5,282 nt of DNA. Origin: a virus (Duplodnaviria > Heunggongvirae > Uroviricota > Caudoviricetes). Location of the stretch: the IMG/VR virus record IMGVR_UViG_2740892019_000008; one strand, given 5' to 3'. The position numbers and the translations under genes are program-made. Shown one piece after another: positions 1 to 5,282 of this stretch. A model generated the notes under the pieces. It did not search any database. It saw nothing but the letters and a program-made list of their open reading frames with translations, and had not been told where the DNA came from. Numbering within the stretch: the first letter of the stretch is position 1; each line of letters starts with the position of its first letter.

Positions 1-1383
1 GCAGACCGCGCAGAAGCCGCAGCGGAAGTGACTGCAGAGCCCTGTGCGAATATAGTGCCGCCGCTGCCCGATGTGTGGATACCGTTTAATGATTCACTGG
101 ATATGATTACGGGCTTTTCGCCATCATATAAAAAAATTGTTATTGGCGACGATGAAATAACAATGCCTGGCGACAAGATTGTAAAGTTTAAACGCGCATC
201 GAAAGCAACTTACATTAATAAATCTGGTGTGCTGACAGAGGCTGCCATTGACGAGCCACGATTTGAACGTGATGGCCTGCTTATTGAGGGGCAAAGAACT
301 AACCTGCTAATCAATTCAACAAATCCGACTAAATGGAACAAGTCGTCAAATATGATCTTAAGTGCATCAGGTGTAGATGATTTCGGATTCCAGTACGCAA
401 AATTTACATTAAAACCAGAAATGGTAGGGCAAATTTCAGCGATTAACATAGTAACCGTTTCCGGCAGTAAAGGTTTTGATGTAACAGGCGGAGAAAAGTA
501 TGTAACCATATCATGCAGGGTGCAAAGTGGCACTCCAAATTTAAGATGCCGATTACGATTTGAAAACTATGATGGTTCTACCTACACATTCTTAGGTGAC
601 GCTTACTTAAATACGACAGATTTATCTATTGATAAGACGGGTGGTGCCGCTAATCGCATTACTGCAAGGGCTGTTAAAGATGAAGCAAGCAAATGGATCT
701 TTTTTGAGGCGACAATTAAGGCACTTGATACAGAAAATATGATAGGTGGAATGGTTCAGTATGCCCCGGCAAAAGGAGTGGGCACTGGCGCGGATGATTA
801 TATTTATATTGCGACCCCTCAAGTTGAAGGTGGGGCGTGCGCTTCATCGTTTATTATAACAGGCGCATCCCCTGTAACACGCGCCAGCGATATTGTAACG
901 GTCCCCATTTCTCTAAATTGGTGCAATCCCGCTATTAGTTCATTAGCAGAAGTTAATACCAATTGGGATGAATCGCCAAACAAAGAAGGTAGCGCACGTA
1001 TTCTTAATATTTCCACTACGGGAGATACAACTGAAATTGCAGATGAAAGTTATATGTATTTGGGGTATACATCTTTGGGAGCACGCGCAATCATTACAAA
1101 TGGTAAAGGCACTAAAATAGAATATAAAAGCGTTATAGAACGACCAGAGAGAAAAAGCATTATCGGCTTTAGATTCACAGAAAGTCGAGAATTGTGTGTT
1201 GTGGTTAACGGTAATATTGGTGCTAAGGTAGTTTCTCCTTATAAAAAACACAAATATACAGGAGGCTTCATTAATATTGGTGGTCAATCATCATCCGGCA
1301 ACCGTCACCTATTTGGACACGTTCGAAATCTGCGTATTTGGCACAAGGCATTGACTGATGCTCAGATGGGGGAGTCAATCTAA
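1..1383 (+). CDS. Phage tail fibre / receptor-binding protein, C-terminal part (5'-truncated at window edge), ending in a LamG/concanavalin-A-like domain
   Basis: The frame of the 28..1383 ORF is open back to position 1 with no stop. The GTG at 28 has no usable spacing to a Shine-Dalgarno and the first in-frame ATG (103) has none, so the gene most likely starts upstream of the window. The C-terminus (...GNRHLFGHVRNLRIWHKALTDAQM) resembles the conserved end of LamG-type lectin-like domains common in phage receptor-binding proteins. The stop TAA overlaps the next gene's ATG (TAATG at 1381..1385). Product call is by motif recognition and context only. Confidence 0.6.
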   Translation, partial: ADRAEAAAEVTAEPCANIVPPLPDVWIPFNDSLDMITGFSPSYKKIVIGDDEITMPGDKIVKFKRASKATYINKSGVLTEAAIDEPRFERDGLLIEGQRTNLLINSTNPTKWNKSSNMILSASGVDDFGFQYAKFTLKPEMVGQISAINIVTVSGSKGFDVTGGEKYVTISCRVQSGTPNLRCRLRFENYDGSTYTFLGDAYLNTTDLSIDKTGGAANRITARAVKDEASKWIFFEATIKALDTENMIGGMVQYAPAKGVGTGADDYIYIATPQVEGGACASSFIITGASPVTRASDIVTVPISLNWCNPAISSLAEVNTNWDESPNKEGSARILNISTTGDTTEIADESYMYLGYTSLGARAIITNGKGTKIEYKSVIERPERKSIIGFRFTESRELCVVVNGNIGAKVVSPYKKHKYTGGFINIGGQSSSGNRHLFGHVRNLRIWHKALTDAQMGESI

Positions 1384-1664
1384 TGAAAGATTTAACACTC
1401 AAATTTGCCGACAGGGCCGACTTTTCGGCCTTTATGGGAAGTATTGGCTATTATAATGACGAGTCGATGCAGGATGATATTCTGATTGATGTGATAGGTA
1501 ACGTGTACAAAGAAACCGGAGAGCTGACTGAAGATGGCGAACCGGTATGTGTTAAGGAAGATGGATATTTTGTAAACGTGCGCATCATTAAGGATACGCA
1601 AATATCGTCATTATTCGATGAATACGCGGTTGCTGTTGAGCATAAACTTCGTGGCTGGATGTGA
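1383..1664 (+). CDS. Hypothetical small acidic protein (93 aa), translationally coupled to the tail-fibre gene
   Basis: ATG at 1383 overlaps the upstream stop, with GGAG at 1371..1374 as Shine-Dalgarno. The protein is rich in D/E and has no transmembrane segment. Its position between a fibre gene and an S74-domain gene suggests a fibre assembly or adaptor role, but no recognisable motif supports that. Confidence 0.55.
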   Translation: MKDLTLKFADRADFSAFMGSIGYYNDESMQDDILIDVIGNVYKETGELTEDGEPVCVKEDGYFVNVRIIKDTQISSLFDEYAVAVEHKLRGWM

Positions 1665-1673
1665 GGTAGAGAA

Positions 1674-2378
1674 ATGGCTACATCAACAGTAATTCCGGGA
1701 GACATCACCACGCTGAAGGGAGATGTTAGTAAAGCAAAGGAAGATATTTCCTCTATTAACGGAAAAGTATCAACGCTTCAGACTGATATGGCCAGTGCAA
1801 AGCAGGATATCAGCACCAGATACACAAAAACTGAAGTTGATAATAAGCTGAAAAACAAAGTGGAAGTGAACGATCTGGAAAGTGGTCGTTATGGCGGAGA
1901 TTTTTACCCGCTGACTGGCCGTGAAGCGTTTTATTTATGGGGATTGGGCACAACTACAGCGGCGGCAAATCTTTATCTTAATCCTGACCCTGCAATTTCG
2001 TCTGTGCTGCGGTCAACATCGTCTATCCGCTATAAACATTCAGTAGAGACGATAGATTCAGAGCACGCCGATCTCATTTTCAGGATGCGCCCTGTGTGGT
2101 ACAGGTCGCAATGCGAAAATGACAGGCGTGACTGGGGATTCTATGGATTGATTGCCGAGGAAGTTGGAGAAATTGCCCCTCAGTTTGTTCACTGGCGACC
2201 AGCCAACGAAGATGATGCACCGGAAACCATTTCCAGCAATGGCCTTGTTGCCGAAGGTGTAATGTACGAACGTCTGGTTGTTCCACTGATTCACCATATC
2301 CAGAAGCTGACTGAAAGAGTTGATGAACTTGAGTCAGAATTAAAGTTGTTATCCGTTTCCCGAAGCGATATCGGATAA
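1674..2378 (+). CDS. Short tail-fibre-like protein with C-terminal peptidase S74 intramolecular-chaperone (auto-cleaving) domain
   Basis: GAGG at 1663..1666 lies 7 nt before the ATG at 1674. The N-terminal ~60 aa carry two copies of a K-x-D-[VI]-S-x-AK-x-DIS motif typical of fibre repeats. From about residue 116 the sequence fits the S74 chaperone domain (PF13884-like): S116-S-I-R-Y-K121 matches the S-[DS]-x-R-x-K Ser/Lys dyad motif (codons at 2019..2036), followed by WGFYGLIAEEVGEIAPQFV and a C-terminal coiled coil (ERVDELESELKLL). Confidence 0.75.
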   Translation: MATSTVIPGDITTLKGDVSKAKEDISSINGKVSTLQTDMASAKQDISTRYTKTEVDNKLKNKVEVNDLESGRYGGDFYPLTGREAFYLWGLGTTTAAANLYLNPDPAISSVLRSTSSIRYKHSVETIDSEHADLIFRMRPVWYRSQCENDRRDWGFYGLIAEEVGEIAPQFVHWRPANEDDAPETISSNGLVAEGVMYERLVVPLIHHIQKLTERVDELESELKLLSVSRSDIG

Positions 2379-2388
2379 AGGAGGAGTA

Positions 2389-2676
2389 ATGGATATAACA
2401 CCTTTTCTTCATGCGCTTTGTGCTGTGGCGGCGCAGGTACTGATTGGCCTTTTTACCGGAAACTGGATTTACGGGGCGATAGCCGGTTGTACGTTCTTCA
2501 TTGCGCGGGAACACACCCAAGCAGAATATCGCTGGATTGAAATGTTCGGGCATGGCAAGCGGATTAACATGCCGTGGTGGGGCGGTTTTGATACGCGCGT
2601 GTGGGATATGGCAAGTCTGATGGATTTTGCTGTGCCGGTGGTGGCGTGTTTACTTGTATTTATATTTTTTGAATAA
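2389..2676 (+). CDS. Hypothetical small membrane protein (95 aa, about three predicted transmembrane segments)
   Basis: Strong Shine-Dalgarno AAGGAGGA at 2379..2386, then ATG at 2389. Three hydrophobic stretches (FLHALCAVAAQVLIGLF, WIYGAIAGCTFFIA, FAVPVVACLLVFIFF). It is the last gene of the + strand operon and is followed immediately by a hairpin terminator. No lipobox or signal peptide is evident. Confidence 0.6.
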   Translation: MDITPFLHALCAVAAQVLIGLFTGNWIYGAIAGCTFFIAREHTQAEYRWIEMFGHGKRINMPWWGGFDTRVWDMASLMDFAVPVVACLLVFIFFE

Positions 2677-2681
2677 AATTA

Positions 2682-2708
2682 AGACCCCATCTATAACTGA
2701 TGGGGTCT
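2682..2708. terminator. Bidirectional rho-independent terminator between convergent operons
   Basis: Perfect 10-bp inverted repeat AGACCCCATC (2682..2691) and GATGGGGTCT (2699..2708) with a 7-nt loop. A T-rich tract follows on the + strand (2709..2720), and on the - strand the hairpin is followed by TTAATTTTATTC. It sits 6 nt after the 95-aa gene's stop and 17 nt after the sopB stop. Confidence 0.65.
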
Positions 2709-2724
2709 ATTCTATTTTCTGCTA

Positions 2725-3714
2725 TTAGTTATTTTTTACATCGGAAGAATTTCCAAACGCCTCCTCAAGAATAGATTCAATTTTACTCATTAGGTGCGAT
2801 GGTATTTTTCTGTTATCTAATTTTAATGTTGTGAAATTTTTCCCATATTTCGCCACAACACCGTCTCCATATTTCTTTTCCCTTTTCTCTCCATGTGAAT
2901 TGTTTTTCTCAACAATAATGAAATCATGAAGAGCCTGTATTATTCTTTGCGCATCTAAACTTTCACCTGATTTTTTCATCCTCAGCAACTGAGATGCAGC
3001 ATTTTTCATGGCTGCTTCCTGTCCCTGATATGCTTTAAAAAGAGCGTCTCCTGCTCTGGCTGATAACTCACCAGGATGGTTAAATATTGCCAATATATCT
3101 TTAGGTAAACCGGCTGTATTAATACATCGACTGATAATATTTCTATCCACGCCTTCGGCTTCAGCTAAAGATTTTACGTTACCGTCAAATTCATGGAGCC
3201 TTCGCAGGTATCTTTTCCCCCTTTCATAGGCGCTGATAGGTCTATAGTCGTTGCCTATCTGCGATAACCATTGCATTTGTTCATCATCTAAATCGCCAAT
3301 AAGAACACGATAATCGCATCCAGTTATAATGGCTGCTTTACGTCTTCGAGAACCATCAGCTACTTCAACAATACCTGACACTTTTCTTGCGAAAGCCGGA
3401 TTTTGTTGCCCAGAAGTTAGAAAAGATGGAATTAAATCAGCTAGAGAAGATTCATTTAATAAATCTTGATCGCGCTCATTACCTAGCCATACCATTGTTG
3501 CCATTTCTACTTTATCTGCGGGGATCGTCTCTAACTTAAAGTTAACATTACGTCCGCATACTGGCAAAGTTATGCTATTACCGGTTAATGAACTCAGTTG
3601 ACGTTTTAAATCACCAACCATAGGTGATACCGGCTGATGTTCAGGTGCATGATGATTATTACTCATAATGCGATTAATATCCGGAGCATTTTTTAGAAGA
3701 GAGCGTTGTTTCAT
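2725..3714 (-). CDS. sopB: Partition protein SopB (ParB-family centromere-binding protein)
   Basis: The translation closely resembles F-plasmid SopB as recalled from memory (e.g. ...GNSITLPVCGRNVNF..., WLGNERDQDLL, LIPSFLTSGQQNPAFARKVSGIVEVADGSRRRKAAI). The ParB GSRRRKAA arginine-rich box is encoded at 3331..3354. The start ATG overlaps the sopA stop (ATGA at 3711..3714), indicating translational coupling. Confidence 0.9.
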   Translation of the reverse strand: MKQRSLLKNAPDINRIMSNNHHAPEHQPVSPMVGDLKRQLSSLTGNSITLPVCGRNVNFKLETIPADKVEMATMVWLGNERDQDLLNESSLADLIPSFLTSGQQNPAFARKVSGIVEVADGSRRRKAAIITGCDYRVLIGDLDDEQMQWLSQIGNDYRPISAYERGKRYLRRLHEFDGNVKSLAEAEGVDRNIISRCINTAGLPKDILAIFNHPGELSARAGDALFKAYQGQEAAMKNAASQLLRMKKSGESLDAQRIIQALHDFIIVEKNNSHGEKREKKYGDGVVAKYGKNFTTLKLDNRKIPSHLMSKIESILEEAFGNSSDVKNN

Positions 3715-4880
3715 TCTTCGTTCTCCCAGCGAGGTTTTATTAGATCATCAAAAATTTCTCGACAAACAGGATCCCATATAGAGACGGCATTTCTCCATGC
3801 ATTAAGTGTTGAACGCTGGTTTGCCGCTTGTTCAAATACTGTTCGCATTTTTATCTGACCTTTACCTACTTCATCGGTAACGCGTACAACCTGACGTAAT
3901 ACCATTGATCCCCATGTATTTCTTATTTGCTCTTCCATCCATCGTGATTGATTTCCTGTAGTGAGACTATATTTAGTCAGAAGCAAGCGAACGGTCGGCT
4001 CAAATCCGCCTAGGTCAACGCTTTCTAGGAGATCGAGAAGCATTGTGAAAAACTGTAGAACAGAGGCGTAATCAAATAATTCTGCAGGGGTAGCAACAAC
4101 GATAACGTCAGCTGCGCAAACAACGTTAATGGTTCCTGTACCGAGGTTTGGAGCACTATCTATAACGATAACATCGTAGTTATCCCAAACTGATTCTATA
4201 GCTGCGCGTAGCATCAGGTGAGGAGGGTGAGGCAATTTACCCTGAGCATGATATTGCATGAGATCTGTTTCTATACGGTGTAAAGCTAGGCAGCTAGGAA
4301 TAATGTCCAGTCCAGGCCAGCATGTTGGTTTTATAGCATATTCAGCGTTATCGCGTTCGCCTAAGTAAAATGGCAGTAAAGTATCCTCGGCATGGATATG
4401 TAAATCAGGTACATAACCGTGATACATGGAGGCTGTTCCCTGAGGATCGTTACCTTCAACTAAAAGAACACGATGGCCTTGTAATGCTAGCCATTGTGCC
4501 TGATGTACTGCAGACGATGTTTTATAAACGCCGCCTTTGTGTGACATAACAGCAAGCACAACTGGGTTTTTATCTTGTGGCCGTTGGTTTGGGTTGCCAA
4601 AAACAGCTCGCATACTATTGATTTGATCTATGGTATAACCGGCACGACGTTCAACTCTTCCTCTCATTTCAAAGTCAGGTGCAGGTAAACGCCCGTTCTT
4701 CTCAGCATCTCTTATTGCTTGAGGAGTTACACCAATTAAATCTGCTACTTCAGTTATCCCCCATCTACGCGTGATACGCCGAGCTTCAGGACTATCATCA
4801 CCGAATTGAGCGATAGCAATTGCTTTGGTCATTTCTTGACCACGCGTAACACAATCTTGTAATAACTTTTTCAAAGACAT
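3711..4880 (-). CDS. sopA: Partition ATPase SopA (type Ia ParA with N-terminal HTH extension)
   Basis: The translation closely resembles F-plasmid SopA as recalled from memory (EMTKAIAIAQF.DDSPEAR.ITRRW, VLLVEGNDPQGTASMYHG, DLHIHAEDTLLPFYLGE, IKPTCWPGLDIIPSCLALHRIE). A deviant Walker A KGGVYKT is encoded at 4518..4538. The N-terminal ~100 aa before Walker A are typical of autoregulating type Ia ParA proteins. GGAG Shine-Dalgarno (complement of 4889..4892) lies 8 nt before the ATG at 4880. Confidence 0.92.
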   Translation of the reverse strand: MSLKKLLQDCVTRGQEMTKAIAIAQFGDDSPEARRITRRWGITEVADLIGVTPQAIRDAEKNGRLPAPDFEMRGRVERRAGYTIDQINSMRAVFGNPNQRPQDKNPVVLAVMSHKGGVYKTSSAVHQAQWLALQGHRVLLVEGNDPQGTASMYHGYVPDLHIHAEDTLLPFYLGERDNAEYAIKPTCWPGLDIIPSCLALHRIETDLMQYHAQGKLPHPPHLMLRAAIESVWDNYDVIVIDSAPNLGTGTINVVCAADVIVVATPAELFDYASVLQFFTMLLDLLESVDLGGFEPTVRLLLTKYSLTTGNQSRWMEEQIRNTWGSMVLRQVVRVTDEVGKGQIKMRTVFEQAANQRSTLNAWRNAVSIWDPVCREIFDDLIKPRWENEE

Positions 4881-4901
4881 ACTGTCATCTCCAGCTTATA
4901 A

Positions 4902-4979
4902 CTTTGCTTAATAATTATTTCTTTGCATATTTCTAGCAAATTGACATAGAAAAAGCAAAGTAAAACAAAAAACGCAAAG
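4902..4979 (-). promoter_or_regulatory. Putative sopAB promoter/operator with four SopA-type CTTTGC hexamers in dyad-symmetric arrangement
   Basis: On the + strand CTTTGC occurs at 4902..4907 and 4921..4926, and GCAAAG at 4955..4960 and 4974..4979. Each pair is spaced 19 bp, and inner and outer pairs share the same centre (about 4940.5). F SopA is known to autoregulate by binding four CTTTGC motifs in its promoter. Exact -35/-10 elements were not pinned down. Confidence 0.55.
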
Positions 4980-5167
4980 ACGAAGATTTGAGCAAAATCA
5001 TCTTTTGTTTTATCCCTTAAATGCAAAAACAAACAACGACAAGCACATAACAAATTGATAATAAATGCTTTTTTAAAAGAAAGGAAATCGTATAAAACTA
5101 GGGAAACATGATGAAAATCATCAATGAGATACGTTTCCTCTATTTATTCTCCTAATCCTCACCAACA

Positions 5168-5268
5168 AAAGAACACAATCAAAGATTGTAAAACAACAAT
5201 AATAATGCACACAAAATAAAGAACACAAATACAGAAAGCAACAACACAATAAAAACAAGATAACACAA
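5168..5268 (+). repeat. A/C-rich, strand-asymmetric tract with direct repeats (AAAGAACACAA twice, AACACAA four times)
   Basis: AAAGAACACAA at 5168..5178 and 5218..5228. The core AACACAA starts at 5172, 5222, 5243 and 5262 (spacings 50, 21, 19 bp). The + strand here has almost no G or T. No ORF is listed in any frame. The tract runs to the window edge and may continue beyond it. Confidence 0.4.
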
Positions 5269-5282
5269 GCTATAAATATTAC

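Follow-up and report, generated by a model that had tools for sequence, protein, structure and literature searches.

orf95, a predicted small membrane protein gene that appears to travel with phage fibre cassettes

What does a small membrane protein do at the end of a fibre operon? The question is raised by a stretch of 5,282 nucleotides (nt) from a tailed phage, IMG/VR record IMGVR_UViG_2740892019_000008, in which a reading frame for 95 amino acids (aa), orf95, follows the fibre genes; the whole stretch is referred to as the window. The original prediction, made from the sequence alone, described orf95 as a three-transmembrane protein and as a candidate moron, that is, a separately acquired gene acting in superinfection exclusion or lysogenic conversion. 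The reading frame, its ATG start and a near-consensus Shine-Dalgarno sequence are present as predicted (Table 1), and orf95 is indeed the last gene on the plus strand before a strong terminator. Comparison with related and distant phages points to a different kind of gene: orf95 is the constant end of the fibre cassette, with the variable 'moron slot' starting after it, and gene order and alignments indicate that in phages its family is a constant companion of gene cassettes for receptor-binding proteins (fibres or spikes). As to its function, we tentatively favour, with a probability of about 0.35, a late inner-membrane accessory, co-expressed with the fibres, that would bring about a receptor-independent change in the envelope of the producing cell through a conserved host envelope target.

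orf95 and the fibre cassette

The window is the arm end of an N15-like linear plasmid prophage, because its best DNA match is Escherichia phage PhiR46_1 (96.8% identity across window positions 1269-5282), in which J, Lom, the side tail fibre gene, two hypothetical genes, the orf95 homologue, ParB and ParA precede the telR site. The N15-like setting put forward originally was thus borne out, and genes for a SopB-type ParB and for ParA lie downstream of orf95 in the window as well. Its plus strand carries four genes: the 3' part of the side-fibre gene, orf93, the gene of a 234-aa fibre, and orf95.

This cassette was compared across the 80 closest IMG/VR contigs, all E. coli phages. It is found in 79 of them, with side fibre, orf93, distal fibre and the orf95 gene last. 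An automated classification assigned the order side fibre, (orf93), distal fibre and orf95 gene to 77 of the 80, and two of the three remaining loci belong to one palindromic N15-like contig that has the cassette too; in the sole exception, IS1 lies directly upstream of the orf95 gene. The palindromic contig (IMGVR_UViG_2724679539_000001) carries the arm of fibre cassette, parB and parA twice in inverted orientation, as would be expected if the assembly had run through a hairpin telomere.

Two types of distal fibre occur, the 234-aa S74 type and, in 30 of the 80 loci, a 346-aa type, and the same orf95 alleles are found with both. Phage 21 has no distal fibre gene, the order there being side fibre, orf93 and orf95 homologue. 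While the C-terminal part of the side fibre ranges from 35 to 99% identity over the 80 loci, orf95 is at least 87% identical. Of the flanks, the upstream one is conserved and the downstream one variable: the 650 nt upstream fall into 4 clusters for 80 loci, the 650 nt downstream into 15 clusters for 47 loci. What follows the orf95 gene are a methyltransferase, a hydrolase and OmpT in phage 2G7b, the anti-phage gene Avs2 in E. coli strain N3, and sitABCD in phage 21 and in a plasmid prophage; in N15, which is arranged differently, cor and the fibre gene are followed by the UmuD-like gene 26 before the terminator and sopB. The last ~8 codons of orf95 itself (2650-2676) vary with the downstream context, the protein ending in ...VFIFFE where the parB terminator follows and in ...VWLLVNRG, ...IWMLIR and others elsewhere, which places the mosaic or recombination junction of the cassette inside the 3' end of the gene. 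In a DLP12-like remnant of E. coli PKF8, orf93, the 234-aa fibre gene and the orf95 gene are intact while the side-fibre gene is cut by IS1. This remnant is heavily degraded and lies beside appY-ompT-envY-nfrA; its following tfa gene is a fragment.

The signals around orf95 were examined in the window. The TAA of the fibre gene ends at 2378, leaving an intergenic gap of 10 nt to orf95, and the terminator hairpin starts six bases past the orf95 stop. The hairpin is far more stable than expected (-19.2 kcal/mol against -6.6 ± 2.1 for shuffled sequences; z = -5.95, a stability reached by 0 of 200 shuffles). Because both strands have T-rich tracts, it scores as a terminator both ways. A moron with its own terminator would have such a hairpin downstream, as orf95 does, but this one also closes the entire fibre operon and parB. 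No sigma-70-like promoter was found on the plus strand from 57 to 2388 by a simple consensus scan, which weak or non-consensus promoters could escape. The original estimate of base composition, 52% G+C against 35-40% in the fibre gene, did not hold when it was computed: orf95 has 48.6%, the adjacent fibre gene 45.5%, orf93 41.8%, the 3' part of the side-fibre gene 41.5% and the window 41.4%, a difference of 3 to 7 points instead of roughly 12 to 17. With only 3 points over the adjacent gene, orf95 does not have the distinct composition of a moron, nor is it present in some and absent from others among similar phages, since it is constant in 79 of 80 and variability starts downstream. The claim of a separately acquired gene is not supported on these grounds: a constant place in the cassette, a conserved upstream and variable downstream flank, cargo after the gene, no promoter-like site and a small G+C gap.

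In more distant phages the constant neighbour of the family gene is, by gene order, a receptor-binding gene and not the lysis genes. The family gene follows a P2/HP1-type fibre gene in an Aeromonas prophage (stop and start overlapping), an S74-bearing tailspike gene in Cobetia phage Carin-5, a side-fibre-type gene directly in Chelativorans, and J plus a 72-aa gene in Comamonas prophages; it lies between tailspike and tail protein genes in a Desulfovibrio prophage, while in the telomere myovirus phiHAP-1 it has a fibre-assembly gene before it and the sheath gene FI behind it. The large phages PS1 and Carin-5 both carry it. At seven loci the gap between its start and the upstream stop is -4 nt.

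A further set of 80 environmental viral contigs was collected with a divergent sub-alignment. Here a tailspike-like protein (cluster D0) is encoded within five genes upstream in 38 of 80, and one of the clusters D0, D1, D2, D17 and D19 within three genes upstream in 54 of 77; D0, D17 and D19 match PHROG tail families, while D1 and D2, which have no PHROG match, are merely fibre-like in appearance. One environmental group has the order portal, 120-aa gene, tailspike, D2 or D17 protein, family gene, scaffold and major head protein, and its D17 protein matches the tail-protein family phrog_5939. The family gene has a lysis cassette next to it in Comamonas, Aeromonas phage 62AhydR11PP and several environmental contigs; these cassettes already include holin-like proteins. 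In two Comamonas loci and in 62AhydR11PP, a protein of family phrog_3108 with the look of a lysozyme- or transglycosylase-type endolysin (...GLQESR...FWQFE...) sits with multi-transmembrane holin-like and spanin-like genes adjoining the family gene.

Two narrower versions of the fibre linkage were tried and dropped. An S74-chaperone fibre is not always upstream, the S74 domain being found in only 3 of 78 loci by iterative local search, and a tie to one fibre family, the head-spike-fibre type, covers only ~10 of 77 loci from genomes and phage records plus an environmental cluster of seven loci. Fibres of GTA_spike_fiber type are found repeatedly ahead of the family gene in prophages of gamma-, beta- and alphaproteobacteria. 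A single scan of 141 neighbour proteins against the PHROGs gave a fragmented picture only.

The protein and its family

The orf95 protein matches the profile of PHROG 1443 over its full length (E value 7.7e-56, residues 1-93 on positions 1-93 of 97), a family that carries no functional annotation. Scans against Pfam, NCBIfam and PADLOC-DB gave no match at E values up to 1; in this range there was no family of known anti-phage defence or exclusion proteins in PADLOC-DB, and none of the GtrA-like or acyltransferase families of O-antigen conversion in Pfam or NCBIfam. A single-sequence search returned 452 clusters at 90% identity and a search with the family profile 2,368, and at the 50% identity level the family has 442 representatives. 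Its members have ~90-110 residues and stand alone, never fused to other domains, and every named one is a 'hypothetical protein'. A close clade with 58-65% identity comes from Escherichia, Shigella, Salmonella, Citrobacter, Enterobacter, Leclercia, Aeromonas and Comamonas. Of 5,426 complete E. coli genomes, 1,884 carry the orf95 gene; the median is two copies and the maximum seven, and the E. coli copies number 3,674 in all. The ratio of nonsynonymous to synonymous substitution rates (dN/dS ~0.12 for 51 distinct E. coli coding sequences) points to purifying selection on the family, and the idea of a non-coding or decaying reading frame was dropped on this basis. No paper mentioning PHROG 1443 or PhiR46 was found in a literature search, and in its matched passages a survey of morons in lambda-like gut phages does not single out the orf95 gene (Mathieu et al., 2020). 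The family is already in the databases, as PHROG 1443 and as thousands of 'hypothetical protein' records, but neither orf95 nor any detectable relative has a functional annotation there or turned up in the literature searched.

Half-length versions occur in other coliphages and are apparent gene fragments. HC6, vB_SenS_ST1UNAM, ZCEC08, PBM-2/3 and anhysbys encode only half of the protein, mostly unannotated. In most of these records it is the C-terminal part, residues ~50-92, to which a family of its own, phrog_34165, corresponds. Anhysbys differs in that tblastn aligns residues 1-35 there, and its annotation lists a 42-aa protein.

The family also has members outside phages. Sphingomonadales carry the homologue as a solitary gene in the chromosome (45-56% identity; TQAEYRWI and NMPWWGG motifs shared), and its neighbours are ligA and recN, ftsZ, a gene for a class A penicillin-binding protein, the cyclopropane-fatty-acid synthase gene cfa, or thiC. 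Gene calls in a Sphingomonas genome gave sensor kinase, GGDEF/EAL and OmpA neighbours and no phage genes. This branch comprises 612 clusters, all hypothetical. Since these homologues stand alone, the family would act on something that exists without any phage, which suggests a conserved non-phage target.

An AlphaFold model of orf95 built with 59 homologues is confident (predicted local distance difference test 92.3, predicted template modelling score 0.74) and has helices at residues 4-23, 26-52 and 74-94; hydropathy gives hydrophobic stretches at ~4-40 and 74-95. Of the predicted three-transmembrane protein the three helices are therefore supported, but the depositors' TMHMM record for the phage 21 homologue has two transmembrane domains with both N- and C-terminus inside, so that the membrane spans may be two or three. 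Over 143 members the mean number of Lys and Arg residues is 5.4 in the loop 40-73, 0.5 in the N tail, 0.05 in the turn between helices 1 and 2 and 0.5 in the C tail; by the positive-inside rule, these counts would favour a topology with the N-terminus and loop inside and the C-terminus outside. The phage 21 record opposes this topology, as do the arginine-rich C tails of the Sphingomonadales homologues, which argue against an outside C-terminus. From the order of the helices in the model, His8, Arg40-Glu41, the amphipathic helix 41-52, the Trp-rich loop and Asp79 should all lie on one side of the membrane. Helix 2 contains G29-x-x-x-G33 and helix 1 the conserved polar residues His8 and Gln16, a set of residues compatible with self-association.

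Conservation is strongest in the loop, not in the membrane helices, and orf95 has no charged C-terminal tail. The core of the close clade is nearly frozen (FIAREHTQAEYRWI..FG.GKR.NMPWWGGFD.R.W). Among members down to ~30% identity, Arg40, Glu41, Glu46 and Trp72 are invariant, and His8, Gln44, Ala45, Arg58 and Pro83 are at least 90% conserved. In three members (P0149, P0208 and P0258) an insertion of ~45 residues interrupts the conserved loop between the RWIE..FG and R.NMPWWG motifs. The N-terminus (MDITPFLHALCAV) has no basic n-region, and a lipobox is absent: residues 8-11 read H-A-L-C, with Leu before Cys11, and Cys11 is not conserved. That orf95 is not a lipoprotein had been anticipated correctly. 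Structure searches of solved and predicted structures with the orf95 model found resemblance to generic helical bundles only, and sequence searches of the PDB with two family profiles gave nothing, or chance matches at E values of about 1.

Remaining features of the window

The features of the window are collected in Table 1. The side-fibre part contains, towards its C-terminus, an NCBIfam GTA_spike_fiber domain (gene-transfer-agent head spike fibre; E value 3e-17) and a weak match to the ConA-like lectin family Laminin_G_3. Its homologue is labelled side tail fiber in PhiR46_1 and phage 21; the PGAP name is 'phage head spike fiber domain-containing protein'. Orf93 is encoded upstream of the family gene in E. 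coli and E. ruysiae, and Comamonas has the related phrog_18574 there. Residues 1-32 of the 234-aa fibre align with the N-terminal positions 1-32 of phrog_4563, the family of the 346-aa fibre, and PhiR46_1 has the 346-aa fibre in place of the 234-aa fibre of the window, which suggests a common attachment adaptor with an exchanged distal part. The parB gene is convergent with the fibre cassette, its stop lying at 2725. The region upstream of parA (4881-5282) is non-coding, with 28% G+C. At 5109-5123 it contains a perfect palindrome, TGATGAAAATCATCA, of which there is a related version at 4989-5002, and a direct repeat of 50 nt lies at 5153-5252 (72% identity); the telR site of PhiR46_1 lies ~60 bp past the window end. 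These palindromes and the repeat could be partition or telomere-proximal sites. An Rfam search of the window gave no match.

Table 1. Position, strand and characteristics of the features in the window
Feature	Position	Strand	Characteristics
Side tail fibre gene, 3' part, first cassette gene	1..1383	+	Truncated at the left edge of the window; matches phrog_1419 'tail protein' over profile positions 351-793 (E 1.8e-195)
orf93, small acidic cassette protein	1383..1664	+	phrog_1361 (E 5.5e-44); start overlaps side-fibre stop
234-aa distal fibre protein, C-terminal intramolecular chaperone domain	1674..2378	+	Pfam Peptidase_S74 (E 4.7e-6, above cut-off); phrog_3299, phrog_454 tail fiber
Shine-Dalgarno sequence of orf95, AAGGAGGAG	2378..2386	+	Direct sequence reading; AAGGAGG at 2378-2384, 4 nt ahead of ATG
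orf95, three-helix (predicted) membrane protein of PHROG 1443	2389..2676	+	ATG start, 95 aa
Bidirectional intrinsic terminator, common to fibre operon and convergent parB	2682-2708	.	10-bp stem, 6 G-C pairs, 7-nt loop
parB/sopB, end marker of the fibre cassette in this phage	2725..3714	-	Pfam SoPB_HTH (E 1.6e-23); ParB in PhiR46_1 annotation
parA/sopA	3711..4880	-	Pfam AAA_31, CbiA; ParA in PhiR46_1 annotation

Possible function of orf95 and comparison with known systems

The favoured explanation can be set out as a series of steps. The protein would be translated from the late tail transcript along with the fibres, as suggested by the 10-nt gap, the lack of a promoter-like site between 57 and 2388 and the shared terminator. 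Inserted into the inner membrane, it would form a helical hairpin and a third helix, and it probably self-associates via G29-x-x-x-G33 and the polar residues His8 and Gln16. The near-invariant interfacial motif His8 ... Arg40-Glu41-x-x-Gln44-Ala-Glu46 ... Arg58 ... Trp72 ... Pro83 may then be offered to a host-conserved partner, for which a lipid-linked envelope precursor or a host membrane protein is a candidate and a phage- or receptor-specific component is not. The most likely outcome would be that the envelope of the producing or lysogenic cell changes, independently of the receptor, to the benefit of the phage, for instance through reduced re-adsorption of progeny or reduced entry by later phages.

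Several points weigh against this explanation. Late expression is deduced from gene layout and a simple promoter scan, and lambda lom is an example of a gene inside the late operon that can still be expressed in lysogens. The topology signals conflict, and the conserved motif may lie on either face of the membrane. The gene may also sit beside fibre genes simply because it is carried along with the phage module that is exchanged most often, with no functional tie, and the envelope effect as such is an inference. A classical moron, a Cor-like block and a holin are each less likely than a fibre-linked accessory.

Among the alternatives, a classical moron, that is, a gene expressed from the prophage for superinfection exclusion at the inner membrane or for lysogenic conversion of a surface structure, fares best, although we regard it as unlikely. 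From the position of the gene, exclusion or conversion by orf95 is possible. Exclusion and conversion genes are known neighbours of tail or fibre genes. N15 has cor in this part of the tail-gene region, with sopB four genes further downstream; the phiHAP-1 homologue sits at the Z/fun position of P2; orf95 has a strong Shine-Dalgarno sequence and a terminator; and the gene has stayed intact in the DLP12-like remnant with the IS1-cut side-fibre gene. P22 sieA and gtrABC, Sf6 oac and the conversion genes of epsilon15 flank tailspike genes. In P2, the 'phage exclusion' genes Z/fun lie between G and FI, a region known for horizontally acquired genes (PMC3091744). Exclusion and conversion are weakened, however, because the same allele occurs with different fibres and is thus not matched to a receptor, because the family is found in siphovirus, myovirus and podovirus-like genomes with differing injection machinery, in structural operons of several tail types and in large phages, and because it has chromosomal homologues outside phages. 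The gene is also not variable among related phages, the variable slot beginning after it; it has no promoter-like site upstream, exceeds its neighbour by only 3 points in G+C, and has no PADLOC match.

Somewhat less probable is a factor in fibre or spike morphogenesis or a virion-associated protein, which would assemble, mature or attach the receptor-binding proteins, or be carried by the tail and inserted into the target membrane. Such a role would account for the invariant place directly after receptor-binding genes, often with overlapping stops and starts, for the presence of the gene in large phages and inside structural operons, and for its recurrence with head-spike-fibre-type side fibres in gamma-, beta- and alpha-proteobacterial prophages. 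The linked fibres, however, are structurally unrelated (ConA-like fibres, S74 spikes, P2-type fibres and tailspikes). Known fibre chaperones are soluble and fibre-specific, and we know of no precedent for a membrane-embedded fibre assembly factor. The lone Sphingomonadales homologues, moreover, have no fibre gene nearby.

Similarly doubtful is a cellular-type membrane-physiology gene, for instance for a small oligomeric enzyme or channel, that hitch-hikes at a module boundary without a specific role in infection. The widespread single chromosomal gene in Sphingomonadales (612 clusters) and the mosaic junction formed by the last codons of orf95 are in line with such a gene, and the invariant charged and polar residues resemble a binding or active site more than a packing surface. 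Purifying selection in hundreds of separate phage settings, among them structural operons of large phages, speaks against a passenger. Hitch-hiking alone would also not explain why, in unrelated phage types, the gene keeps one orientation and is so tightly coupled to the fibre gene before it. In a related but more far-reaching proposal, to which we give the same low weight, the family would be an unrecognised class of small oligomeric inner-membrane enzymes or channels, common to Sphingomonadales chromosomes and tailed phages of three morphotypes, and kept beside glycan-binding fibres and spikes because of a universal step in the envelope, for example the assembly of lipid-carrier-linked glycans or membrane energisation.

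A lysis-related protein, be it a holin, an antiholin or a lysis-timing regulator travelling with fibre genes, is the least probable of the graded alternatives. The protein is small and helical, has a GxxxG motif and is encoded in a late-operon position, and the holin genes T7 17.5 and T4 t lie immediately behind fibre genes. Behind the family gene, Comamonas prophages encode two multi-transmembrane proteins, the lysozyme-like phrog_3108 protein and a spanin-like protein. In 62AhydR11PP, phrog_3108 and a holin-like protein come before it, and several environmental contigs have it immediately ahead of genes for a 3-transmembrane holin-like and a GH108-like protein (judged by reading the sequences). 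Each of these lysis-adjacent cases has other holin candidates, however, and the fibre gene is the constant neighbour, with scaffold and major head protein, sheath or tail genes following elsewhere. Lambdoid and N15-like phages have their lysis genes elsewhere. The loop-centred conservation and the missing charged C-terminal tail do not fit a holin; there was no match to a PHROG or Pfam holin or lysis-category family, and the window contains no endolysin gene.

A Cor-type receptor block was rejected, since there is no lipobox, comparison of the family profile with N15 gp24 by hhalign gave a probability of 0.2%, and neither Pfam nor PHROG returned a Cor match; this agrees with the original judgement that orf95 is not a Cor homologue. 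A relationship to N15 gp23 was tested and dropped.

About one third of the complete E. coli genomes carry the gene, usually in two or more copies, and all records call it a hypothetical protein. It is among the most conserved proteins of an otherwise hypervariable fibre region and recurs beside receptor-binding genes in unrelated phage types. If orf95 truly affects the envelope or entry, as the fibre-linked accessory would, this bears on host-range prediction, on prophage-mediated resistance and on fibre-swapped therapeutic phages, because an exchanged cassette would carry orf95 along. If it is needed for fibre function instead, fibre engineering that omits it could fail. An enzyme or channel, finally, would be a new functional link from receptor-binding modules to host envelope biogenesis.

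Several known systems resemble orf95 in part. Cor (N15 gp24, phi80, T1) and T5 Llp are likewise small envelope proteins encoded in a tail-gene region. They are outer-membrane lipoproteins matched to one receptor, FhuA, whereas orf95 has no lipobox, is predicted to be a helical inner-membrane protein and keeps its allele constant across fibre types. The phiHAP-1 homologue occupies exactly the slot of P2 Z/fun before FI, and the UmuD-like gene 26 of N15 is, like orf95, the last gene before the terminator and sopB; those slots, however, vary by phage, while orf95 is constant and the variable genes lie beyond it. HK97 gp15, P22 SieA and T4 Imm are small inner-membrane superinfection-exclusion proteins, some of them encoded among tail genes. 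Such proteins are specific for the injection apparatus of a single phage group, and their genes are expressed early or in the prophage, whereas the orf95 family spans three tail morphotypes and has chromosomal members. No match in PADLOC, PHROG or Pfam marks orf95 as a protein of this type, PHROG 1443 being the only hit; P22 SieA is the subject of PMC10883804.

T7 gp17.5 and T4 T are, like orf95, small helical membrane proteins encoded after a fibre gene, and late expression, presumed for orf95, would be a further common trait, but orf95 differs in its loop-centred conservation, its lack of a charged C-tail, the presence of other holin candidates and the lack of a holin-family match. DgkA, a trimeric membrane kinase of 121 aa with three helices, illustrates that ~100 residues can make a complete oligomeric membrane enzyme. 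It serves as an analogy only, in the three helices and the interfacial acidic and basic residues, as there is no sequence or fold similarity (Foldseek E value 8.2, TM-score 0.31). What orf95 has in common with the small membrane proteins beside fibre genes is thus its position, and the family differs from them by its extreme conservation, its spread over tail morphotypes and its chromosomal relatives.

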